Part shown: piece after piece, positions 1-52,586 of the stretch | How positions within the stretch are numbered: the first letter of the stretch is position 1 | How the letters are laid out: every line of letters begins with the position of its first letter | Source of the DNA: Candidatus Pacearchaeota archaeon | Lineage (GTDB): Archaea > Nanobdellota > Nanobdellia > Pacearchaeales > GW2011-AR1 | Assembly: GCA_017608705.1 (NCBI GenBank) | Contig: JAFCFJ010000007.1 | Span: forward strand, 1-56,546 | DNA: 56,546 bases | Direction: 5' to 3' | Made by a program: the position numbers and the translations under genes | Notes under the pieces: generated by a model | Told to the model about the DNA's origin: nothing | Database searches by the model: none | The model's input: the letters and a program-made list of their open reading frames with translations, nothing else

Positions 1-246
1 CGCTATTTTTAGGCCGAGCCATGAGGCAAGCATAACAACCAAATCGCTAACACTATGCAAAGCATCACTGAGCAAGGCGAGACTGCCTGAAATAAGAGCT
101 ACGGAAGCTTTCAGGATAGCGAGTAAAAAAGAAACAAGAGCTGCCCTCAATGAGGCAGTTTCGCCTGCTCTCAGCTTCTTGATTTTTTCTTCATGCTTCT
201 CTGACACGCTTTTCCTGCTCTTGCGCTTATGCTCTGCTATTGCCAT
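1..246 (-). CDS. cation diffusion facilitator (CDF) metal efflux transporter, N-terminal part; the gene runs off the window start
   Basis: Not in the ORF track because there is no stop in the window. The reverse complement from the ATG at 246 reads MAIAEHKRKSRKSVSEKHEEKIKKLRAGETASLRAALVSFLLAILKASVALISGSLALLSDALHSVSDLVVMLASWLGLKIA. SGSLALLSDALHSxxD is the CDF TM2 signature. The ATG overlaps the stop of the upstream gene by 10 nt. Confidence 0.7.
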   Translation of the reverse strand, partial: MAIAEHKRKSRKSVSEKHEEKIKKLRAGETASLRAALVSFLLAILKASVALISGSLALLSDALHSVSDLVVMLASWLGLKIA

Positions 247-665
247 CTTCTTCCACGGCCGGCACCATAGCCTCTACCTTGGCCCCGGCCCATACCAAGG
301 CCACCGCTACCACCACGGGCCATGCCTAAACCACGACCAAGGCCATAACCGCCAAGGCCCATCCTTCCAGGCACTGCTATTTCGCTCAACTTCCCTTCAG
401 CCAAGTCCTTGGCATTCTCTTCTATACTCTTGGTTGTGTTGCCTTGATACATAGCCACGCCAAACTGTTGCAATACAGCAAACGCTCTCGGACCGATAGC
501 ACCTGAAACAACAGCTTTCGCTCCCTTATTAATAACAAGCTGTGCAACATTGCTCAGCTTCCCTCGCTTGCCTATATCAGCTATAACAAAATAAGGACAT
601 CTACCAAAAACAGGACTCAACATGCTTCCAACGCTATTACCAGTGGAGCTAAATGCTACTCTCAT
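237..665 (-). CDS. NifB/NifX-type (dinitrogenase Fe-Mo cofactor biosynthesis domain) protein with a Gly/Arg-rich C-terminal tail
   Basis: The 142-aa ORF has VAFSS..FGRCPYFVIADI..GAKAVVSGAIGPRAFAVLQQFGVAMYQG, which matches the NifX/NifB-like fold pattern. The C-terminus GLGGYGLGRGLGMARGGSGGLGMGRGQGRGYGAGRGRR is an RGG-like repeat. Confidence 0.6.
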   Translation of the reverse strand: MRVAFSSTGNSVGSMLSPVFGRCPYFVIADIGKRGKLSNVAQLVINKGAKAVVSGAIGPRAFAVLQQFGVAMYQGNTTKSIEENAKDLAEGKLSEIAVPGRMGLGGYGLGRGLGMARGGSGGLGMGRGQGRGYGAGRGRRWQ

Positions 666-6798: not shown

Positions 6799-7851
6799 TT
6801 AGGAAGTCACAAGCCTTATTATTCTTTTTCTAAACACTGGCAAATCCTCTACACTTACCTGTGCGCCTGTTGCATGTTTATGACCGCCCCCGGTTGCATC
6901 TTCAAGTCCTGCGATAGCTTTTCTCGTGATCTCTCGCATATCGAGTTCGCCACGTAATGAAATATTAGCTTTTGAACCCTTGATATATGCCACAACAATA
7001 ATCTTGTCTGGATAAAGATATGCCAGCTCGTTAGCAAGATCTGCACTCAAGCTCAGAGAGCCACCATACTGAAAGAACAGCACACGACCACGCGCATGTT
7101 TCCTTGCTCTCTCCAAAAGTTTTCTATATTTTTTCTCTATCTGTTTTGCCCGCCTTAACATAGTATAAGTCCTGCTATTCTCCTCAAGTAATTCATAAGG
7201 AGATTTTGCAGTAACTAAAAACTTGAGCATACGAACAACATTCGTAGTTCTGTCTTTCAGCGCAAAATTCAAAATCCTAATAATCTTACCAAGCTCTGTT
7301 TCATACATAGCATTCAAAGCCCTCCCTATACCAGGCTTCCATAAGTCTGGATATTTCCTTGCGAACTCGTCAGCAAAAGAAGGCATATACCCATCACCAA
7401 TACATCCTATCATAGCTATCCACAAATCTTCCTTTCTCGCAGTGGCTTGATAACACCAATAGCTCACTGGTTCACTACTCGGCTTCTCAGATTCGTGGGG
7501 GTTGTAATAGCGAATATAATTATTGATCTTTGCTGATTCAGAATCAAGCTTATGATGATCAATCCACACAAACTTCACCCCAGCTTTCTTTGCTTCCTCA
7601 ACAAAACCTTGTTCTATACCTGGTTTGTCAAGCACAAAAACCGTGTCGCCATTAAGCTCGTGGATCTTTCTTGCGTAACTAGCATTGAGCATAGGAAAAG
7701 ATTTTATGGCTATACCCTTCCCAGCATTTCTATAACGTCTAAGCAACAAAAAACTTGCCAAACCATCTGCATCATTATCAAAGAAAAACAGAGGTTCAGA
7801 GCTCTCATCGACAAAGTTTCTTATCTCACTCAATTGCTTCTCAGAGAGCAT
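6799..7851 (-). CDS. DHH/DHHA1 family phosphoesterase (RecJ/NrnA/c-di-AMP phosphodiesterase-like)
   Basis: DHH motifs are present: DNDADG, VLD, IDHH and GCIGDG. The DHHA1 motif is GGGHKHATG. The gene starts 63 nt downstream of the disA stop on the same strand. Confidence 0.8.
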   Translation of the reverse strand: MLSEKQLSEIRNFVDESSEPLFFFDNDADGLASFLLLRRYRNAGKGIAIKSFPMLNASYARKIHELNGDTVFVLDKPGIEQGFVEEAKKAGVKFVWIDHHKLDSESAKINNYIRYYNPHESEKPSSEPVSYWCYQATARKEDLWIAMIGCIGDGYMPSFADEFARKYPDLWKPGIGRALNAMYETELGKIIRILNFALKDRTTNVVRMLKFLVTAKSPYELLEENSRTYTMLRRAKQIEKKYRKLLERARKHARGRVLFFQYGGSLSLSADLANELAYLYPDKIIVVAYIKGSKANISLRGELDMREITRKAIAGLEDATGGGHKHATGAQVSVEDLPVFRKRIIRLVTS

Positions 7852-7914: not shown

Positions 7915-8913
7915 CTAAACCTTCTTTCCGACCATTACTTGCTCTCTCAGATTAGCCAACTCTTTCTGAATTTTGTTGGCTTCTTTGCCAAAAAAGGATA
8001 AGTCGGAGTTGAGGATATTGCCAAGATTTTTATAGCGCGAAACTAACAGCTTTATCAGCCTTTTCTCAAGTTTTGTTTTTGACAAAAGTCTATAACCTTT
8101 TGGCTGCACTATCTCCTCTGGCGACCTGCCAAAAACCTTGCTTGCAAGCTGGTTTATATCAATGATCTCCTCAAACTTAAGACCAATTTTGCCCAAATGC
8201 TTTAGGCTGTAATCCTCAAGCAATAATTTTTGCTCTGAATCAAGCCCAGACATCAGCTCACGAAAACGCATTCTCACTATAGTGCCTTCGTTGCCAAGCT
8301 CTATCATATAAAATTTCATCGAGGCTGCAATTTTCTTTATCATCTCTATTCTCGCAAGAACAGCGCAAACATCAGCAACAGAAACCAAGCCAGTAATTTC
8401 TAGCACATTAAGGTTCGTAACTAAATCATTATATATCTCACGCTGCTTTTCCAATATTTGAAGCGTTTCAGTTGCCCTCCTAAGAATTTCTTCTGTGCTC
8501 CTCAAAACATATTTCATATCTTGATAATAGAGCGTTACCACATTCCTGCGTTCAGAAACTGCTATAACCAGCGTGCCAACTTGCTTGGCTGTTCGTTCCG
8601 CAGCTCTGTGCCTCGTGCCTGTTTCAGCCGTAGCTATATTCTTATCGGGCACGAGAATTGTGTTAGCATAAAGAATCTTCTTCATGTCACGTGATAAAAC
8701 CACGGCACCATCCATCTTACATAACTCGACTAAACGTTGCGGCGTAAACTTGCTGTTTATTCTGAAACCTTTCTCCAAGATGTCCTGAAGACCATCAGCA
8801 TCAATAACTATGAGCGCGCCTGTCTTTGCACGCACAATATCTTCAAGAGCTGCACGCAATGCTGTGCCAGGAGCAACAAGACGCAATACATCGAGAAAAC
8901 TTTTTTCCTCCAT
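7915..8913 (-). CDS. disA: DNA integrity scanning protein DisA (diadenylate cyclase)
   Basis: The protein aligns by eye along its whole length with bacterial DisA. Matching elements are LRLVAPGTALRAALEDIVRAKTGALIVI, the DAC motifs DGAVVL and GTRHRAAERTAKQ, the linker, and PKGYRLL (PRGYRLL in Bacillus subtilis). Confidence 0.85.
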   Translation of the reverse strand: MEEKSFLDVLRLVAPGTALRAALEDIVRAKTGALIVIDADGLQDILEKGFRINSKFTPQRLVELCKMDGAVVLSRDMKKILYANTILVPDKNIATAETGTRHRAAERTAKQVGTLVIAVSERRNVVTLYYQDMKYVLRSTEEILRRATETLQILEKQREIYNDLVTNLNVLEITGLVSVADVCAVLARIEMIKKIAASMKFYMIELGNEGTIVRMRFRELMSGLDSEQKLLLEDYSLKHLGKIGLKFEEIIDINQLASKVFGRSPEEIVQPKGYRLLSKTKLEKRLIKLLVSRYKNLGNILNSDLSFFGKEANKIQKELANLREQVMVGKKV

Positions 8914-9435: not shown

Positions 9436-10209
9436 CTATAAATATTTCTTGATAATTTTAAGATAATCATTATTGAGTCCACCTAGCCGAAATATCACTA
9501 CTGTATCAATGTTTTGTTTTTTACAAAAAGATAAGTCCTTGTCTAATTTTTTTGGAGAAAGAATCGGCTCGTCTCCAAGGATTCCTCTTGCAATAGTTCC
9601 CAGTCCAACCTGCAGTTTATCACCTAATTCTTCAGCCCGTTTTTTGATATGGCTTTTTATTTTTTCCAAAACAAATTTGTTTTTTATCATACTGGAATAG
9701 AACATAACAATCTTTTTGTGAGGAAATCTCTCGATAGGATATGAAACTCCGAGCCACTCTAATTTCCGTTGCATAAAATCAGTAGCTATAGGATACTCTG
9801 CAGTCAAAATATCTAGATTCAATTTCTTTGAATCCCTGAAGATTTTTTCAATAATTTTTTTATTTCTGAAGAAAGAGAACAGATTGAATAAAAAAAGTTT
9901 TTTGTTCAGAAAAGGCAGTTCTAAATCTATAAGAATCTTGAGTGGCTTTTCTCGGCTGTTTTTCGCCAGTTCATCATAAAGATTTTTCAGCTCATATGTA
10001 TATGAGAAAGGAGAAATCCAATAAGATTTTTCAAGCACAGGCCAATAAGCTATTTCTATTTCAGAATTTATTTTTTTGATTCTCTCTTTGATTGATTCAA
10101 ACTGACTAAGAGACTTGGAAGCCAGATATAGGGTAGAATCGAAATTGATCAGCTTTAGCTTTTCGAGATTCTTCTCATTTGGAAATTCTTCAAAAAAGTC
10201 TACTCTCAT
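9436..10209 (-). CDS. hypothetical protein
   Basis: A 257-aa ORF, AT-rich and Lys/Ile/Phe-rich. No motif recognised. Confidence 0.4.
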   Translation of the reverse strand: MRVDFFEEFPNEKNLEKLKLINFDSTLYLASKSLSQFESIKERIKKINSEIEIAYWPVLEKSYWISPFSYTYELKNLYDELAKNSREKPLKILIDLELPFLNKKLFLFNLFSFFRNKKIIEKIFRDSKKLNLDILTAEYPIATDFMQRKLEWLGVSYPIERFPHKKIVMFYSSMIKNKFVLEKIKSHIKKRAEELGDKLQVGLGTIARGILGDEPILSPKKLDKDLSFCKKQNIDTVVIFRLGGLNNDYLKIIKKYL

Positions 10210-16969: not shown

Positions 16970-19241
16970 TTATGCTGTCTCAACATATATAGCTGGTTTG
17001 CCTGGCTTAGCCTTAGCAGCCTTGCCCTCTGGGTCATGCTTTTCCTTGTCGTTGGTAGCATAGATAACTAGAGGTATGCCAAATACATCGAAACGCTTGC
17101 TCTCTTCCTTATAAAAAACGAGCTCCTGTGGTAAGACATAGAGATAAATCTTAACTGGCTATCAGCTTGTGGCCAGCTCGCTATGCTAACAAAATCTTTG
17201 TTGCCAAGCCTTGCCCAAAGCTCCTCGGCTGTGTGAGGCATGAACGGCGAGAGAAGCTTGATAAAGCCTTCATAGCTCTCTCGCGGCACTTCCTGTTTCA
17301 TGCTAAGGTAATCTGTAAATTTCATAAGACTAATTATTGCCTTAGGAAATTCAAAATTTTCTATAGCTTCTGTCACATCCTTGATAAGCTTGTTAAGCCT
17401 ATAAACTCCAAGCTCGTTATCAGTGTCGCTTGTAACATGCTTTTTCGAAAGCATGATAACCTTTTTCCAGAACCTATAAACACCTTCAATACCTTTATCG
17501 CTCCACTCAAGCTGGCTCTCTGGATTTGCTACAAAAAGCAGATATGCGCGTAGCGTGTCCGCATTATATTTTTCTATCATCTCGATAGGATCAACAACAT
17601 TACCCTTGCTCTTGCTCATTTTCTCACCGCCGAGCGTGACAATGCCTTGATTCCTCAATCTCAAGAAAGGTTCGCCAAAACTAATCAAGCCAAGGTCACG
17701 CAATACCTTAGTGAAAAAGCGTGCATAAAGCAAATGCATCACAGCATGCTCTGCACCGCCAATATAGAAATCAACAGGCATCCAATATTCAACCTTTTTT
17801 TTCTCAAATGCTTCCTTCTCGTTCTGTGGATCGCAGTAACGTAAGAAATACCAGCTACTATCGAAAAACGTATCAAGCGTGTCTGTCTCCCGCCTTGCAT
17901 TGCCATGACAACGAGGACATTTTGCCTCCACAAAACTTTTGTTGCTTTCAAGTGGATTGCCTTCGCCAAACCGAACATCACGGGGTAGCATGACAGGAAG
18001 ATCTTGTTCAGGAACCGGAACAATACCGCAGTTTTCACAATACAAAATAGGTATTGGTGTACCCCAGTATCTCTGTCTGCTAACAAGCCAATCACGCATC
18101 TTATACTCTATAGCCTTGCCCCCAATACCCTGCTCCTCGAAGAATTTTATCAAAGCAACCCTCGCTTCATTGCTTTTCATGCCACTGAACTTGTCAGAAT
18201 TTACAAGTATGCCTTCACCCTCGTAGGCTTCTGTCATCTCTTCAACGTTTAGCTCTTTGCCTTCTGGCTGTATCACCACCTTTATGGGCAAACCATATTT
18301 CTTAGCAAACTCAAAGTCGCGCTGGTCATGAGCAGGCACGGCCATAACACAACCCGAGCCGTATTCCATGAGCACGAAATTGCCTATATAGACAGGAACA
18401 CGCTCTCCATTCACAGGATTGACCGCATAACAACCAATAAACATGCCTTCCTTTTCTTGGCTCTTGTTCGTCAGCCTTGCTCTCCTAACAAATTCTTGCA
18501 CCTTTGCCTCGTATTCTGTACCAGCAACGAGCTCAGCCACAAGCGGGTGTTCTGGAGCGAAAACAATGAAAGTAACGCCATAGATTGTGTCAGGCCTCGT
18601 CGTAAATATCTCTATCTCCTTGCCGTTATCAAGCCGGAACTTTATCTTGGCACCCTCGCTCTTGCCTATCCAGTTTCTCTGCATCACCTTTATCTTTTCA
18701 GGCCAGTCCAAATTCTCAAGTTCTTCCAGCAGTTCCTCAGCATAGGCTGTTGTCTTGAGAAACCATTGTTCAAGATGTCTTATCTCAACCTCTGTTTCGG
18801 GATGACGCCAGCACTTTCCATCAACAACCTGCTCATTAGCCAAAACTGTCTTGCATTTCGGACAATAATCTTTTGCTGTTTCATTATCGCTTCTATGGCT
18901 TTCCTTGTGTAATCTTCAGGATGCACGCCCTCTTTTATCGCAGCATTCTCTGCTGGCAGTCCGAAGCTATCATAACCCATCGGATAAAGCACGTTGAAAC
19001 CTTGCATTCGCTTTACCCGAGCGATACAGTCACCAATAACATAATTCCTAACATGGCCCATGTGCAGGCCATAAGCAGAAGGATAAGGAAACATCTCAAG
19101 GCAATAAAACTTCTCACCATTGAAATCTTCAACTGCAAACACGCCTGCTTCTTGCCATTTCTTTTGCCATTTCTTCTCTATTCCTTCAAATTCCTTAACA
19201 ACATCATTATCTCTGCATTGGGCTGTATTTTCCATTTTCAT
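16970..19241 (-). pseudogene. leuS: leucyl-tRNA synthetase (bacterial-type), reading frame broken near 18870 and between 17068 and 17158
   Basis: The N-terminal ORF 18780-19241 carries the HIGH region ([16 protein letters not shown]). The main ORF 17068-18843 carries VLANEQV, MQRNWIGKSEG and KMSKSKGN. A third frame, 16973-17158, stays open for 62 codons (PVKIYLYV...KPGKPAIYVETA). See the findings for details. Confidence 0.85.
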
Positions 19242-27383: not shown

Positions 27384-27457
27384 GGGCCCGTAGCTCAACA
27401 GGATAGAGCGACAGCCTTCTAAGCTGTAGGTTGCAGGTTCGAGTCCTGCCGCAGAAA
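27384..27457 (+). tRNA. tRNA-Arg (TCT) with a non-pairing 3' acceptor strand (apparently 3'-truncated)
   Basis: GGGCCCG TA GCTC AACAGGATA GAGC G ACAGC CTTCTAA GCTGT AGGTT GCAGG TTCGAGT CCTGC is followed by CGCAGAA, where CGGGCCC is expected. Only 2 of the 7 acceptor pairs can form. Confidence 0.6.
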
Positions 27458-37837: not shown

Positions 37838-37921
37838 GCGGGGGTGCCGGAGTGGACAAACGGGCCAGGCTTAGGACCTGGTGGCTTAGTGCCTGCGTAG
37901 GTTCGAATCCTACCCCCCGCA
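37838..37921 (+). tRNA. tRNA-Leu (TAG), long variable arm
   Basis: Acceptor GCGGGGG/CCCCCGC, anticodon arm CCAGG-CTTAGGA-CCTGG, variable arm TGGCTTAGTGCCTGC, T arm GTAGG-TTCGAAT-CCTAC. Confidence 0.9.
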
Positions 37922-37945: not shown

Positions 37946-40900
37946 TTAAAGCACAACAAGTATTTCTGATGTTTCCTCATCACGCACCTCGCCTTGCTTG
38001 TCCAGACACTTAGCTCTTATCACATACTTGCCCTTACCAAGCATGCCAATAACCTGACTGTTTTCATCGTATGTAAAAGAACCACTAATAACTACCTGGT
38101 CTCGAAGTAAGGATTTTGAATAAACATAATAATCAAGCTTGTCACAATTGTGCTTTATATAGATTTTTATTTCATCACCCTCTTTCGCATCATAGGTTTC
38201 TTGTCTATTAACAATAAAAGCTATTTTCTTGATCTCATAACTTTTTTCATATGTCTCAGTTCCAGCGTTTGCTCCCGAACTGTTTACATTAACCACCAAC
38301 CCATCGCCAGAAAAACATAAGGTATAGAGACCAGAATTCTGAAACAGCAATCTTGATTTGTTCAGCACAGAAATCGCATCAAAATAATCTTTCAGCTTGC
38401 TCTCATGATCCTTAAGGGCTTTGCCGTTAAGCACTATTTCACCATCATTGCTAACATCAGCAATCAAAACCTCATCATAATGATCAAAAGATGCAGTCGG
38501 AACATAATAAACAAAATATATCCGTCTGTAATCCTCACGGTAATACACAGGGATCTTCTTGCCAGAGAGATAAAGCCAAAATTGACTAGCAAGCTTCCCC
38601 TCCCGCTTCTCTTTTCTGAAATAACCAACAGCTTCTCCAAGACCTTGCTCCTCGCATACGTCCTCCTTCTCACCGGAACTTTCATTCCCTCCTTGTTGTC
38701 CCTCCAGTTTATGCTCTCCCATCCTTATTTTTTCGCTTGCAAGAAGCTTTCTAGCATAAAGCTCAAAAGCATAACCACGCCTGAACAAGGCAAGCGCTTT
38801 TTGGTCATTGAAAACAGCACGCGCTTCTATATAGTCTGCCTTATTCGCAATCCTTGTCACGAGCTCCTTTGCATGAGACAAATCCGCAGTTTCAAGTTCA
38901 TCGATAAGCTCTCTGATCTCGTCAAGTCTCTGGCTTGCATCTTCTCTCGAGAGCATTCCTGTCTCGAGCGCATTGGCTATGCTTATATTCTCGATCTCAG
39001 CGAGTGTTTGATTGAGCAAGCCTGCATTACCAGTTGTTATTGCTTCCTCCACACTTTTCTTGTCAAGCCAACATCTAATCTTCGGATTGTCACAGTAGCC
39101 AACATCTACCCATCTGCTCGGGTCTGTGCCAAGCCCTGGATTATCTGTTGAGCAAACACGTACAACGCCTACGGTGTAGGCTCTCGGCATTACCGCTTCT
39201 TCTATCCTGCCCTGTAAGCTCCCGCCGGCAAGCATACCATATGGGCTCGGCTTTCCTCCAATACACTCGCTCTCTGTCGTGATTTGTGTTGTTGTGGCTT
39301 GCTCCTCAATATATTTGTCGCGCAAATAATTCAGGGCAAAGCTCGTGCTTACCTGTTTGAAACCACATTCCTCTTGCTGATTTACACGCACACATAGCTC
39401 AGCATAACCGCTTGGCGCAGTAAAGTCTTTTGAGCGCTGAACATAACTACCACGTGCTATGTAACCAGTATCAACAACATAGAAGGCTGGTGTAGCATAA
39501 AGACCTTGACTATCTTGGCGTCGAAGATAGACAGAGTAATAGGCACCGCGGTCCTTGCCAGCATATATATGATAGAAAACCTTGTAGTGTGATGTCGGCG
39601 GCACTGTTGCATCGCTGAAAGGAATTTCATCAAACCAGGCTGTGAATTGCGGCGGTGAATCTGGCTCAACAAAAGCTTTGATGTCTGTTGGGAACCGCGT
39701 AGATACAAAGGCTTTGCAAAATGTTGAGCCTGCCTGCTCTATGCTCCTTGCCTGAAACGCCTCGAATGCTTCCTTGCCATAATACGTGGTGAAGTAATCA
39801 ACTGATTTCTCCATGTTCTGCCATGCAGCCGTGACTGTGAGGTATTCGCCACCGCCACGTGTTGCCTGACCATACGCATGCTCTATTAGTTTAGGAATAA
39901 GCATGTTTATGAAAGGCGCTGCTTGTCTCCAGAAGAACTCGCATAAATAGATGGATTTTATTTGGTCGCATATGCCTATATTCCTTCCAGTAGCTAAGCT
40001 TTCTTGCAAACAATCTCGCGTGGCTCTCAAAATACTTAGATAGTTTTCTATACCAGCATGCAAACCTGTTAAGCATACAGGTAAGTAGATACCTTCACGA
40101 TAGTTCGGCCAGCACAACACAAGACTACCGAATATTCCGCTCTGCACCACGTTAGCAACACGATAAGTGCCGCCAAAATCACACCTGCTTGATGGGCAAA
40201 TGACAGGATCGCAAACATTGAACAGGATCTGGCAGTCACGAGGAGACATGAAATCAACACACTCTATTTCAGGCACATTCACAGCAGGCTCTACCCTTAC
40301 AGGCTGTTTGAAACCAAACATAGACAAATCCAAGGTTGCTAAGCCAGGCCTATAGCGTGAAGATGCATATGCGAGAGCCTTTTGCGCTTGCTGAAACACT
40401 CTCACGGCCTCGCTATTGCTCAAACCAGGGAACTGGTCAATAGGTTGTGCAGCACCAAGATTAAATTGTCTGCATATATCATCCCCTATCACGTCAAACT
40501 CTTCACGACCATTAGGACCAACATTGCAAATCCAAAACGTGGACGGCATGCCGCTAGCATAATAAGCTTTTGTTCCTCCGAATGCTGGCAATGTCTGCTT
40601 TGTAGCCACATACCAGCCATGCTCGGCATCGAACGGAACAAGAGCAGGCAGACCGCGATAAGGTTCTGTGTCATAGTAACGGACAACAGGATTTCTATAT
40701 TTGTTATGATAAACATCATCACCATACCGCATGTAAACTATGGCAACTGGTGCCTCTGCCTCTTTCACCGACCGCACGGTTCCGTCAGGAGCAAGCTCAA
40801 GAGCATAGCTCTTCAAAACACTATATTGGTTTCCTTCTCGCATCAATACCTGTAAATAAGATCTGCCACCAGCACCTATGTAATGTGTAATAGCCACAGG

Positions 40901-43855
40901 TGTTTCGTCATCAAGCTCCTGTAATTCTGTCGGCAACTCTACACCTTCAAACCTTCCCTTGATGTCTTGCCAGACAAGACCGTTGTAAGGTTCTTTCACA
41001 ATCTTATCTGCAAGCACAACATTAACCTTTTCTTGGTCGATATCAAAACTCCTGGCAAGAGTTGAAGTGCCAGCATAAAGCTCAACAAGACTCGAGATGT
41101 CTGCTGTTGTTTCGCCTATACGTTCCAGCGCAGTCTCTTGCAAAACCTCGCTCCTCGCAGCATCCTTGACAGAAAGCCACAGGTCTAGTTCTCGCAACTG
41201 TTCAAATCTAAGATTTTCTGCCTGTAACTTCCCAAGCAACTCGCGAACAGTTGTTGTTTTTTCCCTACCTCCTTCTGTGTAAGTAATTTGCTTATCACCA
41301 TATCTCTCAAGCAATTCATGATAATACTCTTCCTTTGCCTTCTCTGTATTCACAATGGTTTCGCCAAGCAGGCCTTTCTCGCTGTACTTCTCCTCTATGC
41401 TCTTTATCCTTTCGTTAACTTCTTGAATCTTGTTAGCAACAACACTAACATCTTGTTCTATCTCAGCATTTTTATTTATCAAACACTGTTGCCTTGTAGC
41501 ATATTGCCCATTCGCTACCAATTCATCACATTTTCTCTTCCATTCTTGCATTACCGCCTGCCTAGCAATGGCCTTACCGCTGAAACCTTCTATAAGGTTC
41601 TTTATATGCAAAAATGTTGATGTTAGCAAACAAGCACCTTTCATTCCTTTCACCATCTTACCAAGTCTCTCGTTGATACTCTCCCATTGCTCGATGCTCT
41701 TGTTCAGATTTGAGATCATCTCCATTGTTTTCTCTGGAGAAAGCTTGAGAGCTCGTTTTTCTATACCAATCTTCACCTCAAGACTCGTGTCGGTATAGCG
41801 ATTATGAGATTGTGGTATAACAGTAATCTTTGCATTCATCTCAGCCTTTACCTTCTTGAGCAAAACATCATAACCGCACAAAGTTCTTGGTCTATCAAGT
41901 TCAAGCCAGACCGTGCCTTCTCTTCCATACTTGGCTTCATCATAGCATTCATAGCGCACCCTTACTTTATCTTGCGCAATCTTCTCGATCCGTAACCATC
42001 CTTTATCACCGAGCAAAATCTTCGTATCTTGGCCGGCTGTCTCCTGCCACCAGCTCGTTGCATTGCTTACAACAATAGCTACGCTCAGCTCGTCTATACT
42101 CGGCATGGAAATTGACTCCAAACGTATAACATGGAATTCATCACCAATTTGAACAAAAGTGCTTTCTCCATAAAATTGCATGCCGACTGGCCACTCACCA
42201 TAAACCTCTTTATATCTGTTCACTATGTCAGCATAAGTTTGCATCTTGTCACTGTCCTTAGCCAAAAGAGCAGCACGCTCCAATGCAAGTTGGCCAAGCC
42301 TTTCGCCATTGAATTCCTCTTGTGGGTAATCATCGGCAAGGCGCAGATAATCGCTAAACGCATTGCCAAGGACAGATTCGAGATTAGGAGACCAGTGCTT
42401 TTCCACCATCGTGCTTCTTAGCCTTATCTCAACATCATCGACAACTATGCTATCCAACCCATCCTTATCAACAAGGACAAAAGCGTTAATTCCTTGCTTC
42501 CTTGTTTCGTTCTCCACCTGCTCTTTGAATTCTTCCATGCTTTTTGGCCTCTTTGCATAGGAAAGACCAGCAGATGTCAGTAATTTCACCATACTATCCA
42601 CCTTTTCTAAGATATCCTCGCTGTAACCCTGTGTAAGTACGACAAACATTTTTTGCTCACCTGTGCCTAAACCATAACGTGATAAATAAGCTGGCGTCAG
42701 ACCAATGTAAGCAAGAGAAAAATTCGCGGTCAGCTTTTCACCTATACTGACATTAACAATCTCTCCGCCCACATCAAAATCAAGAACAGAAGGTAAAAGT
42801 CTAAGTTCCAACCTCGGATTGCCTGTACAGCTAATGCTGACACTTCCTCCATAGGCAGTTGTTTCTATCTTCGTAACCCTGCATTTGTCATCAAGAAAGG
42901 TTTCTCCCTCATAAACATAGAGCAAGCGATCATCAACTCTGAGCTTAGCTCTCTTCTCAGGCAAGACAACGTCATCAAGCCTTACTTGCAAGGCAGCCCT
43001 ACAATAAAATCCAGGCAAGTATATCTTTGGCGAGAGCTCGCCCTTTTTCACAGTAAAGCTTGCTACACGTCTCAGGTCTGGAGAATAAATGCTAATCTTA
43101 GCTCTGTCTTCACTAACAGCTTCAGCCCTTATATAGCCCTTACCATTCCAAAATGCATAAGCTTCGTGCTGTTTTTGCCATTCATCCTTGCTAAGCACAG
43201 GTAAAACAAAGCGGTCGCGTGAAATGCCGTGAATGTTAGCAGCATCATAATATATCCTTGCTGTTATATTTGCTGTAACCCAATCAGGCATCTCCTTTTC
43301 AGAAGGTTGTCTTCTCAGCACAATGATAAGATAACCAGCATTATTCAAGATTGGCGCGCCAAGCAAGTTGTCGCGCCCTACCCAAACTCTTGCCGGCTGA
43401 TACCCAATTGTTTTTATATATTCGTTCCTTTCTTGCAGTATTGGTCTTATATACTTAATACCCTCCACATCAAGAAACGGGTTGAGCTTCAAGGCATCGA
43501 TTCTGCAAAACACCGCTACATCTTGTTCTTCGAGCAAATCACTCCTGACAACAGCTGGCTGACATGCTCCAGGCAGTATCTGCAAAACAAAGTCCTGCGT
43601 CGCATTACATTTCTCCGGCTCATACATTGAAGGCCAGAACAATCCTGTCGGTTGTTGCCTAACAAATCTGCTATAAGTTGGCTGTCCATACTGCACATTC
43701 ACATAGCGATACGAATCAAAGCCTGCTGTTGGAGAAAATGACTGTGCATTAACTAAAGAGATAAGCGCAAGGAAAGCTACAATAGCCAGGGCTAGCAATA
43801 CTCTTTTCCCTACTTTAGCTTTTCTATCACATAACACTAATGATTGCCTTTGCAT
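37946..43855 (-). CDS. giant secreted protein (~1969 aa) with a Sec-type signal peptide, a coiled-coil middle and a Cys-rich module; no recognisable family
   Basis: One uninterrupted ORF; the track starts it at the TTG at 43882. I prefer the ATG at 43855, which gives MQRQSLVLCDRKAKVGKRVLLALAIVAFLALISLVNA/QS. I see no C-terminal TM segment. By my count, about 17 Cys are clustered at roughly 39070-40270. Confidence 0.7.
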   Translation of the reverse strand: MQRQSLVLCDRKAKVGKRVLLALAIVAFLALISLVNAQSFSPTAGFDSYRYVNVQYGQPTYSRFVRQQPTGLFWPSMYEPEKCNATQDFVLQILPGACQPAVVRSDLLEEQDVAVFCRIDALKLNPFLDVEGIKYIRPILQERNEYIKTIGYQPARVWVGRDNLLGAPILNNAGYLIIVLRRQPSEKEMPDWVTANITARIYYDAANIHGISRDRFVLPVLSKDEWQKQHEAYAFWNGKGYIRAEAVSEDRAKISIYSPDLRRVASFTVKKGELSPKIYLPGFYCRAALQVRLDDVVLPEKRAKLRVDDRLLYVYEGETFLDDKCRVTKIETTAYGGSVSISCTGNPRLELRLLPSVLDFDVGGEIVNVSIGEKLTANFSLAYIGLTPAYLSRYGLGTGEQKMFVVLTQGYSEDILEKVDSMVKLLTSAGLSYAKRPKSMEEFKEQVENETRKQGINAFVLVDKDGLDSIVVDDVEIRLRSTMVEKHWSPNLESVLGNAFSDYLRLADDYPQEEFNGERLGQLALERAALLAKDSDKMQTYADIVNRYKEVYGEWPVGMQFYGESTFVQIGDEFHVIRLESISMPSIDELSVAIVVSNATSWWQETAGQDTKILLGDKGWLRIEKIAQDKVRVRYECYDEAKYGREGTVWLELDRPRTLCGYDVLLKKVKAEMNAKITVIPQSHNRYTDTSLEVKIGIEKRALKLSPEKTMEMISNLNKSIEQWESINERLGKMVKGMKGACLLTSTFLHIKNLIEGFSGKAIARQAVMQEWKRKCDELVANGQYATRQQCLINKNAEIEQDVSVVANKIQEVNERIKSIEEKYSEKGLLGETIVNTEKAKEEYYHELLERYGDKQITYTEGGREKTTTVRELLGKLQAENLRFEQLRELDLWLSVKDAARSEVLQETALERIGETTADISSLVELYAGTSTLARSFDIDQEKVNVVLADKIVKEPYNGLVWQDIKGRFEGVELPTELQELDDETPVAITHYIGAGGRSYLQVLMREGNQYSVLKSYALELAPDGTVRSVKEAEAPVAIVYMRYGDDVYHNKYRNPVVRYYDTEPYRGLPALVPFDAEHGWYVATKQTLPAFGGTKAYYASGMPSTFWICNVGPNGREEFDVIGDDICRQFNLGAAQPIDQFPGLSNSEAVRVFQQAQKALAYASSRYRPGLATLDLSMFGFKQPVRVEPAVNVPEIECVDFMSPRDCQILFNVCDPVICPSSRCDFGGTYRVANVVQSGIFGSLVLCWPNYREGIYLPVCLTGLHAGIENYLSILRATRDCLQESLATGRNIGICDQIKSIYLCEFFWRQAAPFINMLIPKLIEHAYGQATRGGGEYLTVTAAWQNMEKSVDYFTTYYGKEAFEAFQARSIEQAGSTFCKAFVSTRFPTDIKAFVEPDSPPQFTAWFDEIPFSDATVPPTSHYKVFYHIYAGKDRGAYYSVYLRRQDSQGLYATPAFYVVDTGYIARGSYVQRSKDFTAPSGYAELCVRVNQQEECGFKQVSTSFALNYLRDKYIEEQATTTQITTESECIGGKPSPYGMLAGGSLQGRIEEAVMPRAYTVGVVRVCSTDNPGLGTDPSRWVDVGYCDNPKIRCWLDKKSVEEAITTGNAGLLNQTLAEIENISIANALETGMLSREDASQRLDEIRELIDELETADLSHAKELVTRIANKADYIEARAVFNDQKALALFRRGYAFELYARKLLASEKIRMGEHKLEGQQGGNESSGEKEDVCEEQGLGEAVGYFRKEKREGKLASQFWLYLSGKKIPVYYREDYRRIYFVYYVPTASFDHYDEVLIADVSNDGEIVLNGKALKDHESKLKDYFDAISVLNKSRLLFQNSGLYTLCFSGDGLVVNVNSSGANAGTETYEKSYEIKKIAFIVNRQETYDAKEGDEIKIYIKHNCDKLDYYVYSKSLLRDQVVISGSFTYDENSQVIGMLGKGKYVIRAKCLDKQGEVRDEETSEILVVL

Positions 43856-45698
43856 TTTCAATCTCCGTGTAAATATCAGCAAGCTCTTCTATACTTGATG
43901 GAACGCTGAATGCTTCTATATCTATAATAATCTTACTCGCATCCCGTAGCTGTTCTTCGCTGAAGTAATATTCTACATTGCCACCTCCGCCAGGAAGCAT
44001 GCTGAGCTCTTGTGCAGGCAACCTAATAGTAAAGCATTCCTCACGTGTCAAGCCAAAAAAGCCAAGCACGCCCTTCTGCGGAACCTCTATACATCTCGTT
44101 GTCTCGCTCTCTGGAATCCTGATGCTTCCATTACGATAAAAAACGACGCTTATGTTGTATAAACCTTGGCTAAGCTCAATGCTTTGTTGTAAAGGATAAG
44201 CTACCGTAATGCTCTTGCCATCCCCCTTCGAGAATGTTATGAAGGCTTGACCGCCAATTTGCTTGCCATCAGCCAAAATTTCAATGCTGAGATTGTAAAG
44301 TTTATCCATAACTAAATTCACACTTGTCTGCTTATTTGTAGAGATATATTTCTTGGTCTCCTCGTAGCTATGTGACCTTGCTACAATAAGGCCATTAACA
44401 CATTGTGGAAATAATGCTGTAAGCTTTGCATCATCACCGCTAATCTTCGTCTCTCCTATGTAGCATTCGGTATCAAGACATCTGAAGCTTATGTTTGCTG
44501 GCACTGCATGCAGGCCTGTATCATAGGTATAGACTGTCACAATAGTATTGGCTTTGTCACATATCTCCGGCCCTGCCAATTCAATGCTTTCTGTCATGCT
44601 CGCATTTCTTCCCACGTTCTTTTCGATAACAACCGCGACAGGGAACTGAAAAACCTCGTCTCCACTATAAATCTGCACAAGAACAGGAAAGACAAGATCA
44701 TAAACAAAATGATATTGCACATAGCAGAAACCAAGCACACCGAGCCCTGCTTGCGTGCCCATAGGCTTAGCTATCATAATACCGTTTTGTGCCGGCCAAA
44801 TTTCAACGCGCAGGGGCCATGTGTGCGAAAATAAAAACTGCACATTCTCGCCCCCGGTGTCTATGTTCTGAACAAAATATTTATGCTCTTCTTTTGCAAG
44901 TTTGTAATCGCTATCACGAAGTTTTATTGCCTGAATATTAGCTTCCAAAGCCAAAAGTAATTCTTGTGTAACGTTTGCAGCATTCCACACCATAGGAGAG
45001 CATGAAAGCTCTGCGCCGTCAACTGGAGCATATAAGCGCAATACATCAAGAGCGTAATTCTCAAGAAAGGCCCTTCTCCGCTCGTGTTGATAGATTTTCT
45101 TTGCTGTGTTGTAAAACTTTCCAAACTTGCTCCTTATGCTAATTCTATGTTCATTGATCTTGGCAATAGCATCGCCTTTCGAGATTGTCAGAGGCATCTC
45201 AAGCGTGATACTTATTCTTGTCTCGCTAATCTTAACCTTTGCCTTAGCATTTCCTGTCTCAACCCTATAGCCCTGTTCCTCAAACACAGAGAAATCACAC
45301 TTTGTTGCTTGTTCAGCAATATAACGAGCAAACTGTTCTTGTATTTCCTGCAATGTAGGAACTTGCTCTTTGGCCAGGCCATTGCCTGAAACATAATACC
45401 AGTAAGGCACAGAAAAACCCATAAACTCAAGTTGCGAGGAGAATGGCATGTAGGCTGAGCCAGGCTCGAAATCTGGCAAATACAAATAGCCTGCTTGCAC
45501 CCCGGCAAGTTTTGCTGCTTCCTTGGCTTCATTCTCAAGGCAAGAAATAAAATACTCGTAAGCAGGTCTCAATTCCTGCGGAACCTCCCTTATTGTAAGC
45601 TTTTCCCTAACCAAGAAATAGCCAGCAACGGCGGCAATAAGCAAGACCGCGACAATTATGAAAAGTGTCACCTGTCCTCTTTTTCTATTGTAATTCAT
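43827..45698 (-). CDS. 623-aa surface protein with a class III (prepilin-like) signal peptide; otherwise unassigned
   Basis: The N-terminus MNYNRKRG/QVTLFIIVAVLLIAAVAGYFLV has a basic stretch, Gly-Gln, then a hydrophobic helix. The 3' end overlaps the start of the giant gene by 29 nt. Confidence 0.6.
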   Translation of the reverse strand: MNYNRKRGQVTLFIIVAVLLIAAVAGYFLVREKLTIREVPQELRPAYEYFISCLENEAKEAAKLAGVQAGYLYLPDFEPGSAYMPFSSQLEFMGFSVPYWYYVSGNGLAKEQVPTLQEIQEQFARYIAEQATKCDFSVFEEQGYRVETGNAKAKVKISETRISITLEMPLTISKGDAIAKINEHRISIRSKFGKFYNTAKKIYQHERRRAFLENYALDVLRLYAPVDGAELSCSPMVWNAANVTQELLLALEANIQAIKLRDSDYKLAKEEHKYFVQNIDTGGENVQFLFSHTWPLRVEIWPAQNGIMIAKPMGTQAGLGVLGFCYVQYHFVYDLVFPVLVQIYSGDEVFQFPVAVVIEKNVGRNASMTESIELAGPEICDKANTIVTVYTYDTGLHAVPANISFRCLDTECYIGETKISGDDAKLTALFPQCVNGLIVARSHSYEETKKYISTNKQTSVNLVMDKLYNLSIEILADGKQIGGQAFITFSKGDGKSITVAYPLQQSIELSQGLYNISVVFYRNGSIRIPESETTRCIEVPQKGVLGFFGLTREECFTIRLPAQELSMLPGGGGNVEYYFSEEQLRDASKIIIDIEAFSVPSSIEELADIYTEIENAKAIISVM

Positions 45699-45782
45699 AG
45701 GTTAAAAACGAGAAAGCGAATATATAAACTTTATCTCTAAAATAGATAAAATTTTTATATCAACACATCGCCTGGTGATTAG

Positions 45783-45855
45783 GGGCCCGTGGTCTAGTGG
45801 CTATGACGTCGCCCTTACGCGGCGAAGGTCCCAGGTTCGAATCCTGGCGGGCCCA
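45783..45855 (+). tRNA. tRNA-Val (TAC)
   Basis: GGGCCCG TG GTCT AGTGGCT ATGAC G TCGCC CTTACGC GGCGA AGGTC CCAGG TTCGAAT CCTGG CGGGCCC A. Confidence 0.9.
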
Positions 45856-45937
45856 CTCCTTGCATGCGGTAGATGGAGCCAAAAAGATTTAAAAAGCTCC
45901 TTTCTTGTGCTACAAAAGGCACGGGGAGGCTGAAAGA

Positions 45938-46950: not shown

Positions 46951-48300
46951 ATGCTAGAAAAACTTGTTCTTGGAAAGGAAAAAATCAAAAAGGGACTGCT
47001 CTCAATTGTGCTGCTTGCTGGCATTTCGCTTACTGGTTGTCTGCCTGCCATTATCAGAAATCCTACAAAGCAATTTCTCATGCCTAGGGAAACGGAAGTC
47101 ATAGCAGTTTTACCATCTAGAGATACGGAGTATTTTTCTCAAGAACTAGATGAGGAAGAAGGAGAAAAAGAAAGCATGGCTCTCTACCTCGTAAACTTGG
47201 AAAACATAAAAGCAAGTAAGAGACTTTGCTTTGTAAAGGGAAAAATAGTTGATTTTTCTTTGTCCCCCAGCGGAAAGGAAATAACATATATAGAAACAAA
47301 AATAAACACAGAAGAAGTTAAAGTCTCGATAAATTGCTTAGATCTTGAAACAAGAAAGAGCAAAGTGATTGATACTCTAGAAGAAAAACTTCTTCCTTTA
47401 GCATTATTCTCCGGCTGGATTGACCACGACACATTTGCATATGGTTACATCAAAAATATGGCTCTTGAAGCAGAGCTACAAGCATTTATTTACGAAAGCA
47501 AAAGAGACAGTATTACAAAGATAGCCCAAGAAAAAATTAATCAGAACATACCATTCTTTCCAATAATAAAAAACAATACTCTTTATTTTCTTTCCTCGCA
47601 TGAAGATATAAACGAGGGAAGCATCCCTGTGATAATTGGAATAAACCTAAGAAATAATAAAAAAAGCGAAATTTATCTGCCCCCAGAAATCACAGAAATT
47701 GTGGAGTATGTAGATTTTGATATACATGATAAAAAAGTGGCCCTCACAACTGACGAAGGACTTTGGCTCATAGACAACAATGGAGAGAAAGAACAGATAC
47801 AAGCATCAGACCTTACACAGTTCCGGTTCCCTGTATGGTCTCCCGACGGAAAGAAAATCGCCTTCTGTGACCAAAAGCCGGATGACGGAAAATTTGTTTC
47901 TCACATTTACGTGTATTCTCCTGATATAAAGGTGATAAAGAGTGTATTTGCTGTGCCAAATATTACAGATGCCTTTATAAATTATGAATGGATAAACAAC
48001 GAATCTTTATGGCTAACATATTTCGGCCGAGACATGTTTGTGCAATCAAAAATTCAGGTTGATGAGCCACTAAACAATGAAGATATTCTTATTGTGCCAA
48101 CAAGCTATATTGCCCTCTCCAAGCTTTATGGCGATATTATCAGGAGCTATAGGACAAACAGGGAGATAGTAGGAGAAGATATAGAATGGTGTGAAGAACT
48201 TACCAAACCTTACAAGCTAAACGCAAAACAATGGATTAATTTACTTATGCTTTATGGCTATGAGGATGAAAGAATAAGATTTATACTTAAAAAATACTAG
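46951..48300 (+). CDS. putative lipoprotein with a TolB/DPP-IV-like beta-propeller
   Basis: The signal peptide has the lipobox SLTGC. Propeller-blade-like motifs are present: SPSGKEITYIE and FPVWSPDGKKIAF. The gene is visibly AT-rich. Confidence 0.5.
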   Translation: MLEKLVLGKEKIKKGLLSIVLLAGISLTGCLPAIIRNPTKQFLMPRETEVIAVLPSRDTEYFSQELDEEEGEKESMALYLVNLENIKASKRLCFVKGKIVDFSLSPSGKEITYIETKINTEEVKVSINCLDLETRKSKVIDTLEEKLLPLALFSGWIDHDTFAYGYIKNMALEAELQAFIYESKRDSITKIAQEKINQNIPFFPIIKNNTLYFLSSHEDINEGSIPVIIGINLRNNKKSEIYLPPEITEIVEYVDFDIHDKKVALTTDEGLWLIDNNGEKEQIQASDLTQFRFPVWSPDGKKIAFCDQKPDDGKFVSHIYVYSPDIKVIKSVFAVPNITDAFINYEWINNESLWLTYFGRDMFVQSKIQVDEPLNNEDILIVPTSYIALSKLYGDIIRSYRTNREIVGEDIEWCEELTKPYKLNAKQWINLLMLYGYEDERIRFILKKY

Positions 48301-51336: not shown

Positions 51337-51888
51337 ATGACAACATCACGCATTATAGATAAGAGCTTTGCAGAAATCTTCTTTTCACAGATAATTTCTG
51401 TTACAGGCGGTCTCATAGCTGGAACTTTTCTTGCGGTCTTCACAAACAAGCTCTTGTTTCTGCCAGGCATGCTTATCTTACTTCCCGGCTTCCTTGAGAT
51501 GCGGGGGAGTATAAGCGGAACGCTCGCGTCGAGAATAAGTTCTGGCCTTTTTCTGGGTGTAATAAAGGCGGAGAGGCCAAACAGAAGGATAATTTCAGGC
51601 AATATCATCGCTTCTTTCTTTCTTGCTCTCTGCATTTCATTTACTCTTGGAGTTCTCGCATATTTCTTCAGCTATTTTGCTTTCGGCATAGCTGAGCCAA
51701 AAATAATTTTTGTGGCTGTGCTTGCAGCATTGATTGCAAATATCGTGGAGGTACCGCTAACGCTTTTTGCAACATTGCAGATATTCAAGCATGGACATGA
51801 CCCAAACAACATAATGGGGCCTTTCATCACCTCCACGGGAGATATAACAAGCATACTCGCGTTGCTTATTGCTTTATGGATAATATGA
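51337..51888 (+). CDS. MgtE-type divalent cation transporter membrane domain protein
   Basis: LPGFLEMRGSISGTLASRISSGL and HGHDPNNIMGPFITSTGDITSI are MgtE/SLC41 TM-domain signatures. It starts immediately after the ftsY stop. Confidence 0.7.
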   Translation: MTTSRIIDKSFAEIFFSQIISVTGGLIAGTFLAVFTNKLLFLPGMLILLPGFLEMRGSISGTLASRISSGLFLGVIKAERPNRRIISGNIIASFFLALCISFTLGVLAYFFSYFAFGIAEPKIIFVAVLAALIANIVEVPLTLFATLQIFKHGHDPNNIMGPFITSTGDITSILALLIALWII

Positions 51889-52586
51889 AACCTGTAACCA
51901 CACTAGCGAAATATTTGGGAAAGTTGCAAGAAATAAGAAGACGTAGTTATCATCCGCTCGTGCATAAGGTACATAGACGTTACGGCATCTCAAAGAAAAC
52001 ATTATTCTATGTTAAAGAATATGGACCTCGCGCTAACGTGCCAAAAACCATAATAAAAGAAAGTATCAAACTGCTACTGCTAACATCGATAATAAGCTCT
52101 CTTGGTGGTCTTGCACTTGAGCATGTAAAAATGCTGCTCGTGTCTGTTATGCCACTCCTCATACTGTTGCCTACACTCAACGATATGATTGGTGATTTCG
52201 GAACGATAACAGCTGCATGCGTCTCCACGATGTTGCATGAAGGCAAACTTCGTGGCAGAGTTTTTACAGAAGAAGTGAAAAAGCTCTTCGTGCAAATTTT
52301 GCTTGTGGCCTTACTCATAAGTTTTGCAAGTGCTGTTGTTGCGCTCTCAATATCTCTGGCACGAGGCTTTGAGCTCAGCCCTGCATTTGCATTGAAAATC
52401 TTGCTAGTTGTATTGCTTGATGTTATAATTCTTGTCAGCGTACTTTTCTTTACAGCAATAAGGGCGGGGATACATTTTTACAAGAGGAGGGAGGACCCCA
52501 ACAACCTTCTTATACCGATAACCACCTCGCTCGCAGATTTCAGCAATATGTTTCTGCTTGCAATATTGCTTCTTCTGTTTTTTTGA
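51876..52586 (+). CDS. MgtE-type divalent cation transporter membrane domain protein (second copy)
   Basis: LLPTLNDMIGDFGTITAACVSTMLH and REDPNNLLIPITTSLADF are present. It overlaps the preceding gene by 13 nt. Confidence 0.7.
   Translation: MDNMKPVTTLAKYLGKLQEIRRRSYHPLVHKVHRRYGISKKTLFYVKEYGPRANVPKTIIKESIKLLLLTSIISSLGGLALEHVKMLLVSVMPLLILLPTLNDMIGDFGTITAACVSTMLHEGKLRGRVFTEEVKKLFVQILLVALLISFASAVVALSISLARGFELSPAFALKILLVVLLDVIILVSVLFFTAIRAGIHFYKRREDPNNLLIPITTSLADFSNMFLLAILLLLFF

Follow-up and report, generated by a model that had tools for sequence, protein, structure and literature searches.

The question raised by this locus is what is made by two large neighbouring genes of a Candidatus Pacearchaeota archaeon, and for what purpose. 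The genes encode a protein of 623 amino acids (aa) and a secreted giant of 1969 aa, and lie in a stretch of 56,546 nucleotides (nt) comprising contig JAFCFJ010000007.1 of assembly GCA_017608705.1 (the window). The answer to which we give about an even chance is that the pair encodes a lineage-specific, vertically inherited surface complex of the Pacearchaeota and Woesearchaeota (DPANN archaea) that contacts the envelopes of host or prey cells.

Reading of the open reading frames (ORFs) places the 623-aa gene, counted from its ATG, at 43827..45698 on the minus strand and the gene for the giant at 37946..43855 on the same strand, within an open frame spanning 37946..43882 (-) in which the first ATG, at 43855, gives the 1969-aa product. 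With the stop of the 623-aa gene at 43827 the two genes overlap by 29 nt, and the junction (43827..43866, minus strand) also contains a GGAG (43863-43866) 7 nt ahead of the giant's ATG (43853-43855). The original prediction, made from the letters of the DNA, of two overlapping minus-strand genes with this overlap and with the N-termini quoted below, located between tRNA-Leu(tag) and tRNA-Val(tac) among housekeeping genes, is borne out by the ORFs and the sequence. Its statement that the giant has no repeat architecture also holds, with no tandem repeats found in the two-gene region. A TATA-box-like TTTATATA was read directly from the sequence at 45721..45728 (minus strand), 22 nt upstream of the ATG of the 623-aa gene. 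Because this is the usual archaeal spacing between TATA box and start, TTTATATA is taken as the putative promoter of the operon, giving a leaderless or near-leaderless transcript. The giant, as second gene, would then be translationally coupled to a leaderless first gene. A scan for bacterial promoters and terminators was uninformative, the organism being an archaeon.

The two genes are linked throughout the relatives. Of 83 loci searched by tblastn, 81 have the N-terminal domain of the giant 80-1300 nt downstream of the 623-aa gene and in the same orientation; the two exceptions offer less than 400 nt of downstream flank, so that the genes are linked at 81/81 testable loci. Adjacency in relatives had been named beforehand as a check on the predicted module, which passed it. 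Over the 81 loci the distance from the stop to the first ATG of the giant has a median of 1 nt, with the genes overlapping in 38 and 0-20 nt apart in 18. About one relative in four has the genes 100-1170 nt apart rather than overlapping (loci L028, L073, L074, L037 and about 20 more), with the 1170-nt spacing in L028 being such that it could house an inserted small gene. At the other end of the pair, some relatives (L001 at 9874-10011, L002 at 8687-8824 and a 184-kb JGI contig) have a 45-aa ORF, rich in Lys and Glu, that shares 11 nt with the beginning of the 623-aa homolog, with no counterpart in the window because tRNA-Val lies only 84 nt upstream.

The presence of a tRNA gene on each side raises the possibility that the pair arrived by horizontal transfer, as an island integrated at such a gene, and the base composition might at first be read in the same way. 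The comparison of k-mers and GC content with the flanks, proposed along with the prediction, gave the module the largest tetranucleotide distance of all windows of the same size and a slightly raised GC content (0.435 against 0.402). The GC content at third codon positions (GC3) is ordinary at 0.40-0.42, which makes amino-acid composition the likelier cause of the deviant GC and tetranucleotide usage. The surroundings are also those of the relatives. In the window the pair is accompanied by genes for TFIIB, prolyl-tRNA synthetase, two metallophosphoesterases, L44e, S3Ae, GINS51, phosphoglycerate mutase and SRP54. Where the flank is long enough, nearly every locus has TFIIB (75-83% identical) as the next gene, on the opposite strand, and most have S3Ae about 3 kb upstream of the pair. 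The tRNA-Leu(tag) gene (37838-37921, plus strand) is convergent with the gene for the giant, and a tRNA-Leu occupies the same place and orientation in 12 of the 16 relatives checked, as (tag) in 10 and (caa) in two, with tRNA-Leu(tag) present on the other strand in one more. The tRNA-Val(tac) gene (45783-45856, plus strand) is divergent from the 623-aa gene, and in 11 of the 16 a tRNA-Val(gac) is found 300-700 nt upstream of the pair. Both tRNA genes serve as synteny markers, tRNA-Leu being no part of the module. The recurrence of S3Ae, tRNA-Val, tRNA-Leu and TFIIB around the pair points to an ancestral backbone rather than a tRNA-targeted insertion, and no integrase or other mobile-element gene was found among the neighbouring genes scanned. 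The island explanation is thus already contradicted by the conserved synteny and was rejected, retaining next to no probability, and with it the prediction of a 'tRNA-flanked module' in the sense of an insertion falls. The pair is vertically inherited.

Both ORFs are more than chance reading frames since, at E ≤ 1e-3, the giant has at least 269 homologs and the 623-aa protein at least 1742. Homologs of the giant (E-values down to 0) measure 1750-3120 aa and show 35-51% identity to it, with typical values of 35-40% over ~85% of its length, with named sources being Pacearchaeota, Nanoarchaeota/Nanoarchaeia or simply 'archaeon'. Those of the 623-aa protein are 608-675 aa long and 44-50% identical over their full length. 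In a scan with one genome per species at least 553 species genomes had relatives of the 623-aa protein, with the best 80 of the at least 553 stretches carrying the titles Pacearchaeota, Woesearchaeota, Nanoarchaeota or Nanoarchaeia, apart from one titled 'Dojkabacteria'. That stretch, L057 (JAFCCB010000019.1, Candidatus Dojkabacteria), contains an archaeal S3Ae, a 623-aa homolog and the start of a giant, and is most likely an archaeal contig mis-binned under a Candidate Phyla Radiation bacterium.

Neither protein was credibly matched to a curated family when the single sequences were compared with Pfam, NCBIfam, PHROGs and PDB sequences, nor did family profiles find a credible match in PDB, and profile-profile comparison revealed no domain common to both families. 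Likewise there was no PHROG match at E ≤ 0.01 and no BFVD viral fold match at E ≤ 0.001. Matches to DUF6184, PAS-A, drrA, HisF, SNF5 and BamD, all at E ≥ 0.005, were dismissed as noise. A Pfam scan of family members gave only weak matches, to TPR_6 near aa 500-560 for 6 of 24 giants and to Mab-21 for 6 of 62 anchors (the 623-aa family; E ≥ 7.5e-4), both of which were judged uninformative. The family and structure searches thus agree with the prediction that no known adhesin, S-layer, protease or toxin family is involved. The description of the giant as being of 'unknown family' is true of curated families and needs amending in that its family has already been noticed in the literature as fam00969 (see below).

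The first clue to the location of the 623-aa protein is its N-terminus, which reads MNYNRKRG/QVTLFIIVAVLLIAAVAGYF, with a leader at aa 1-8 and a hydrophobic helix at aa 9-30. This segment (codons 1-30, 45609..45698, minus strand), with leader MNYNRKRG, putative junction G8/Q9 and helix QVTLFIIVAVLLIAAVAGYFLV, has the charged leader, the [KR]-[G/A/(S)] junction and the hydrophobic helix of ~20 aa that define a class III signal, as had been predicted. The family consensus begins ...KRGQVTIFIIIAI, and 104 of 120 homologs show a [KR][GAS]Q junction ahead of the hydrophobic helix, with G (56), A (26) or S (22) at position -1 and always Q at +1, nearly all of the remaining 16 having a closely similar junction. 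Of the 120, 90 conform to a FlaFind-like pattern. Leader length ahead of the junction ranges across the homologs from 4 to 60 aa. A fixed junction with a freely varying leader is what would be expected if the leader is cut off, which supports, from the sequences, cleavage at the junction.

The original prediction was that the protein may be cut by a prepilin peptidase and displayed on or in a filament. In that case it could be a modular (minor) type IV pilin, built by a type IV filament machinery into a filament that presents the giant at its tip. In keeping with this, modular pilins are known, as are archaeal type IV filament loci that include genes for large adhesins, and the signal is conserved with its variable leader. 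The closest models for such an arrangement would be the tip complexes of type IV pili, formed by minor pilins with PilY1/PilC, and modular pilins such as PilB of Streptococcus sanguinis (PMC8179133). Unlike in the PilY1/PilC systems, no filament machinery genes are nearby. The 56-kb window has no prepilin peptidase, ATPase, platform or small pilin gene, no filament ATPase, platform or other pilin lies beside the pair in 85 related loci (1.2 Mb), no further protein with such an N-terminus was found elsewhere in the window or near the pair in these loci, and the pair sits in a housekeeping backbone outside any filament locus. Pfam gives the giant no match at E ≤ 1, and hence none to the PilY1/PilC family, with no beta-propeller match for its residues 1040-1969, and at 623 aa with at least three domains the class III protein here is far from a typical pilin. 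He et al. report DPANN genomes to lack the components of type IV pili, and a recent census has filament systems in just 'a few DPANN'. The filament explanation is therefore distinctly unlikely. Class III signals also serve surface proteins that are not pilins, such as the sugar-binding proteins of the Sulfolobus bindosome, which likewise are large proteins that bear a class III signal and a tether formed by the N-terminal helix. The pair differs from the bindosome in having no substrate-binding-protein fold and no neighbouring ABC transporter, and in having a giant secreted protein as the partner. On the most parsimonious reading of the sequence, the N-terminal helix would act as the tether of the 623-aa protein.

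What would project from this tether is indicated by the AlphaFold2 (AF2) model of the 623-aa protein, which has a mean predicted local distance difference test score (pLDDT) of 83. The model has a long N-terminal helix at aa 6-34 followed by a second helix, an alpha/beta domain at aa ~41-360 and beta-sandwich domains at aa ~385-600. The latter (codons ~385-600, 43899..44546, minus strand) are tandem domains of CnaB/carboxypeptidase-regulatory type according to AF2 and Foldseek, with the PDB matches of the model being TIE proteins, Gram-positive pilins and SlaB, all of which are stalk proteins built of tandem Ig/CnaB-type domains. These matches reach probabilities of 1.00 with template modelling scores (TM-scores) of only 0.1-0.25. 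On the strength of the model the beta-sandwich domains are interpreted as a stalk. The protein also has 10 invariant Cys and six N-x-S/T sequons.

The giant is exported by another route. It begins with a Sec-type signal peptide (...LISLVNA / QS, codons 1-37, 43745..43855, minus strand) with a K/R-rich n-region, a layout shared by all homolog N-termini inspected. This is its sole hydrophobic segment, in agreement with the prediction of a Sec-secreted protein with no anchor. The giant has 35 Cys, of which 28 are invariant in the family, and 12 N-x-S/T sequons. Together with the 10 invariant Cys of the partner, these 28 fit disulfide-bonded extracellular proteins. An extracellular location of the pair is thus suggested by the class-III-type N-terminus, the Sec signal, the invariant Cys, the sequons and the lack of a second hydrophobic segment in the giant.

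Conservation along the giant is organised in blocks, being high at aa 50-350, 650-800 and 1050-1600 with a peak at 1200-1600, and with variable zones at residues 350-650 and 800-1040. The N-terminal domain (codons ~80-350, 42806..43618, minus strand) has a conservation of 0.47-0.73 per 50-aa block, six invariant Cys and the motif C-x-A-x-QDF..PGGC.PAVVRSDLLEEQNVPVFC. A conserved helical block (codons ~650-800, 41456..41908, minus strand), recognised by its conservation and invariant columns, contains GIEKRAIKLSPEKT...KGACF.... The most conserved core (codons ~1050-1600, 39056..40708, minus strand), defined by conservation of up to 0.81, invariant columns and AF2, consists of a beta domain (1050-1190), a Cys-rich stretch with 10 invariant Cys (1199-1305), a helical bundle, a beta-sandwich (1400-1500) and then an alpha/beta part. 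The core is 35-58% identical across at least 80 species. In the AF2 model of residues 1040-1969 the beta domain, the beta-sandwich, the alpha/beta part and the helices up to ~1715 are confident and most of the tail is poor. Foldseek gave this fragment no match with E ≤ 0.001 in PDB or BFVD, only generic FN3, ApaG and Ig matches at E ≥ 0.002, with the conserved core unmatched. Long helices (codons ~1601-1715, 38711..39055, minus strand; positions 569-675 of the modelled fragment) with a pLDDT of 85-95 stand between the core and the C-terminal tip, and from the model these are interpreted as a coiled-coil-like stalk.

Beyond the helices the family diverges. Past residue ~1700 alignment occupancy is ~0.5 and conservation 0.12-0.17, with tails after the core ranging from 134 to 1363 aa and falling into 33 similarity clusters among 120 proteins. 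In the window the lineage-specific tip (codons ~1716-1969, 37949..38710, minus strand), delimited by alignment, ends in a beta-sandwich with FN3/Ig-like Foldseek matches. Exhaustive phmmer against 1.84 billion representative proteins found no credible relative of the last 270 residues, the lone other match, a eukaryotic kinase with 32 PAS repeats, being repeat-driven and rejected. In the closest relative, L084, with an anchor 74% identical, the contig stops in the linker before the tip. The window's tip is an orphan, beta-rich domain that probably serves for binding. At the same position relatives hold SLT, amidase, glucosaminidase or M10 domains, and all named domains of the homologs lie beyond the conserved core at the far C-terminus. 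Examples are SLT at 1900-2023 of 2049 aa, Amidase_3 at 1992-2203 of 2207 aa, an M10 peptidase with SLT at 1843-2372 of 2402 aa and a glucosaminidase with SLT at 2182-3056 of 3120 aa. SLT or amidase domains occur in 18 of the 119 homologs listed and SLT in 17 of the 119, always far C-terminal. The conserved core, the variable tails, the far C-terminal domains and the helices that separate them establish the layout of the giant as a signal peptide, a conserved body, a helical stalk and an exchangeable tip.

The peptidoglycan hydrolase tips of some relatives point to bacterial walls as their target. The same tips could mean that the giant is a surface-held enzyme scaffold that scavenges cell-wall debris without contact between cells, the 623-aa protein merely retaining it, and Pacearchaeota genomes are reported to encode muramoyltetrapeptide carboxypeptidase and to depend on scavenged compounds. 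Against this, most members of the family, that of the window included, have no hydrolase domain, the tips are very diverse, and a conserved non-catalytic core of 1700 aa is hard to justify for a simple exoenzyme, such that scavenging appears highly unlikely as the explanation of the pair.

A giant with such a domain has been described before. Proteins of up to 3000 aa, specific to Pacearchaeota and Woesearchaeota and carrying an SLT domain, were grouped as fam00969 and proposed to act in attachment to bacterial walls (Castelle et al., 2021; PMC8204110), and the point about large SLT proteins is repeated by Vigneron et al. (2022; PMC9723730) and in later papers on metagenome-assembled genomes. 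In other work, an enrichment of Pacearchaeota in the >2.5 um size fraction was taken by its authors as a sign of strong attachment to hosts. Several of the homologs found here are annotated as SLT-domain or amidase proteins, among them sources named 'transglycosylase SLT domain-containing protein [Candidatus Pacearchaeota archaeon]', and the giant resembles fam00969 in lineage, size, extracellular location and full-length homology. It differs in having neither the SLT domain nor any other hydrolase domain, with no match to SLT (PF01464) in the window's giant even at E ≤ 1. Judged by names, sizes and lineage, the giant would be an SLT-less homolog of the fam00969 proteins. In the literature searched, papers on proteins of this type discuss the SLT domain only, with no mention of a ~1700-aa core, interchangeable C-terminal domains or a linked 623-aa gene. 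What had been noted is the family of the giant, flagged and uncharacterised, and what is added here is the partner gene and the core-plus-tip architecture.

The main rival places the pair in the structure of the envelope itself. By analogy with SlaA/SlaB of the Sulfolobales (PDB 8qox), the giant might be the outer canopy of a two-component coat similar to a surface layer (S-layer), the 623-aa protein being its membrane anchor and the variable tip simply its exposed face. In favour of the analogy, both systems have one operon for a large Sec-secreted protein and a smaller, beta-sandwich-rich, membrane-tethered partner, and the pair is present throughout the clade among housekeeping genes. SlaB (8qox_B) is among the Foldseek matches of the 623-aa model with a probability of 0.99, and according to the literature no DPANN archaeon has yet had its S-layer protein determined. 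However, there is no sequence similarity between the systems and the SlaB match is to a generic beta-sandwich (TM-score 0.13-0.17). SlaB is anchored C-terminally, the 623-aa protein N-terminally by a class-III-type helix, and the order of the genes is reversed. The modelled C-terminal 930 residues of the giant match no S-layer structure. S-layer proteins are generally poorly conserved above the genus level and usually far less conserved than the core of the giant, enzymatic tips on a lattice protein would be unusual, and in Woesearchaeota the most highly expressed genes include others that carry an S-layer protein annotation (PMC11606122). An S-layer-like coat is therefore considered an unlikely, if serious, explanation.

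The layout of the giant has other parallels. Polymorphic toxins and the receptor-binding and tail proteins of phages also join a conserved N-terminal body to a variable C-terminal functional module. The giant differs from these in having no Rhs/YD, PHROG or viral fold match and no immunity genes downstream. Among DPANN archaea, giant surface proteins are suspected of a role in host contact, an example being the SPEARE proteins of the Nanohaloarchaeota, with which the giant has no domains in common as far as Pfam shows.

Returning to the contact complex that we favour, its two components would be encoded by one operon and meet at the cell surface. The 623-aa protein would be exported via its class-III-type signal, with the N-terminal hydrophobic helix staying in the membrane and the beta-sandwich stalk projecting outward. 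The giant would be exported by Sec and, being anchorless, would be held at the surface by the 623-aa protein, with its disulfide-rich conserved core (~1700 aa) extended by the helical stalk and the lineage-variable distal tip. The tip would be the part that meets the envelope of another cell, and in the minority of relatives with hydrolase tips the target attacked would be the bacterial wall.

Several points weigh against this proposal. The argument that the two proteins bind each other comes solely from the operon structure and the co-occurrence of the genes, and conservation as high as this beside housekeeping genes would also fit a purely structural role in the envelope. A named tip domain is missing from about 85% of the giant's listed homologs, and the giant of the window has neither a hydrolase nor a recognisable binding domain. 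The structural basis is uneven, with the AF2 model of residues 1040-1969 being mixed (pLDDT 67), the first 1040 aa lying outside it, and the most conserved stretch of all (aa 1199-1270) having a pLDDT of only 34-47 and no usable fold. No experimental description of either protein was found in the literature.

Other features of the window and its relatives were observed in the course of the analysis. A second predicted surface protein is encoded 1.2 kb from the module (46951-48300, plus strand), with 449 aa, a PD40 beta-propeller repeat and a lipobox-like N-terminus (...LLAGISLTGC). Two slightly overlapping ORFs of 183 and 236 aa (51337-52586, plus strand) both contain an MgtE divalent-cation transporter domain and might represent one transporter split in two or a duplicated one. 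Leucyl-tRNA synthetase likewise occupies two overlapping ORFs (17068-19241, minus strand), with 18780..19241 (153 aa) covering the class-I catalytic N-terminal part and 17068..18843 (591 aa) the editing domain and the rest; either the gene is split or there is a frameshift. A DisA diadenylate cyclase of bacterial type (7915..8913) adjoins a DHH/DHHA1 phosphoesterase (6799..7851), both on the minus strand, and the two could form a pair for synthesis and degradation of c-di-AMP in a DPANN archaeon. Positions 1-2000 have no long ORF and no Rfam family at E ≤ 0.1, with a raised GC content in the first kilobase (0.486) and one recognisable ORF (237..665, 142 aa) with a dinitrogenase FeMo-cofactor-type domain. 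At 27389-27451 (plus strand) a 63-nt Rfam tRNA match (model positions 6-65 of 71, 53.8 bits) received no ARAGORN call and may be truncated, split or otherwise unusual. In the Pacearchaeota contig L080 (21457-21550, plus strand) ARAGORN called, beside tRNA-Cys, a 94-nt 'tRNA-Pyl (cta)' that may contain an intron or have been mis-typed.

Few uncultured archaea are as widespread as Pacearchaeota and Woesearchaeota, which have a minimal metabolism and are presumed to live on other cells. In this setting a scattered remark in the literature on a large SLT protein becomes a defined, vertically inherited two-gene module with relatives in at least 553 species genomes. The peptidoglycan-hydrolase domain that has been used to argue for bacterial hosts is just one of many tips on a common chassis. 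The module offers concrete targets for antibodies, cryo-electron tomography, heterologous expression of tips and prediction of hosts. [quoted passage not shown] If so, the type of host, bacterial or archaeal, would be readable from the tip.

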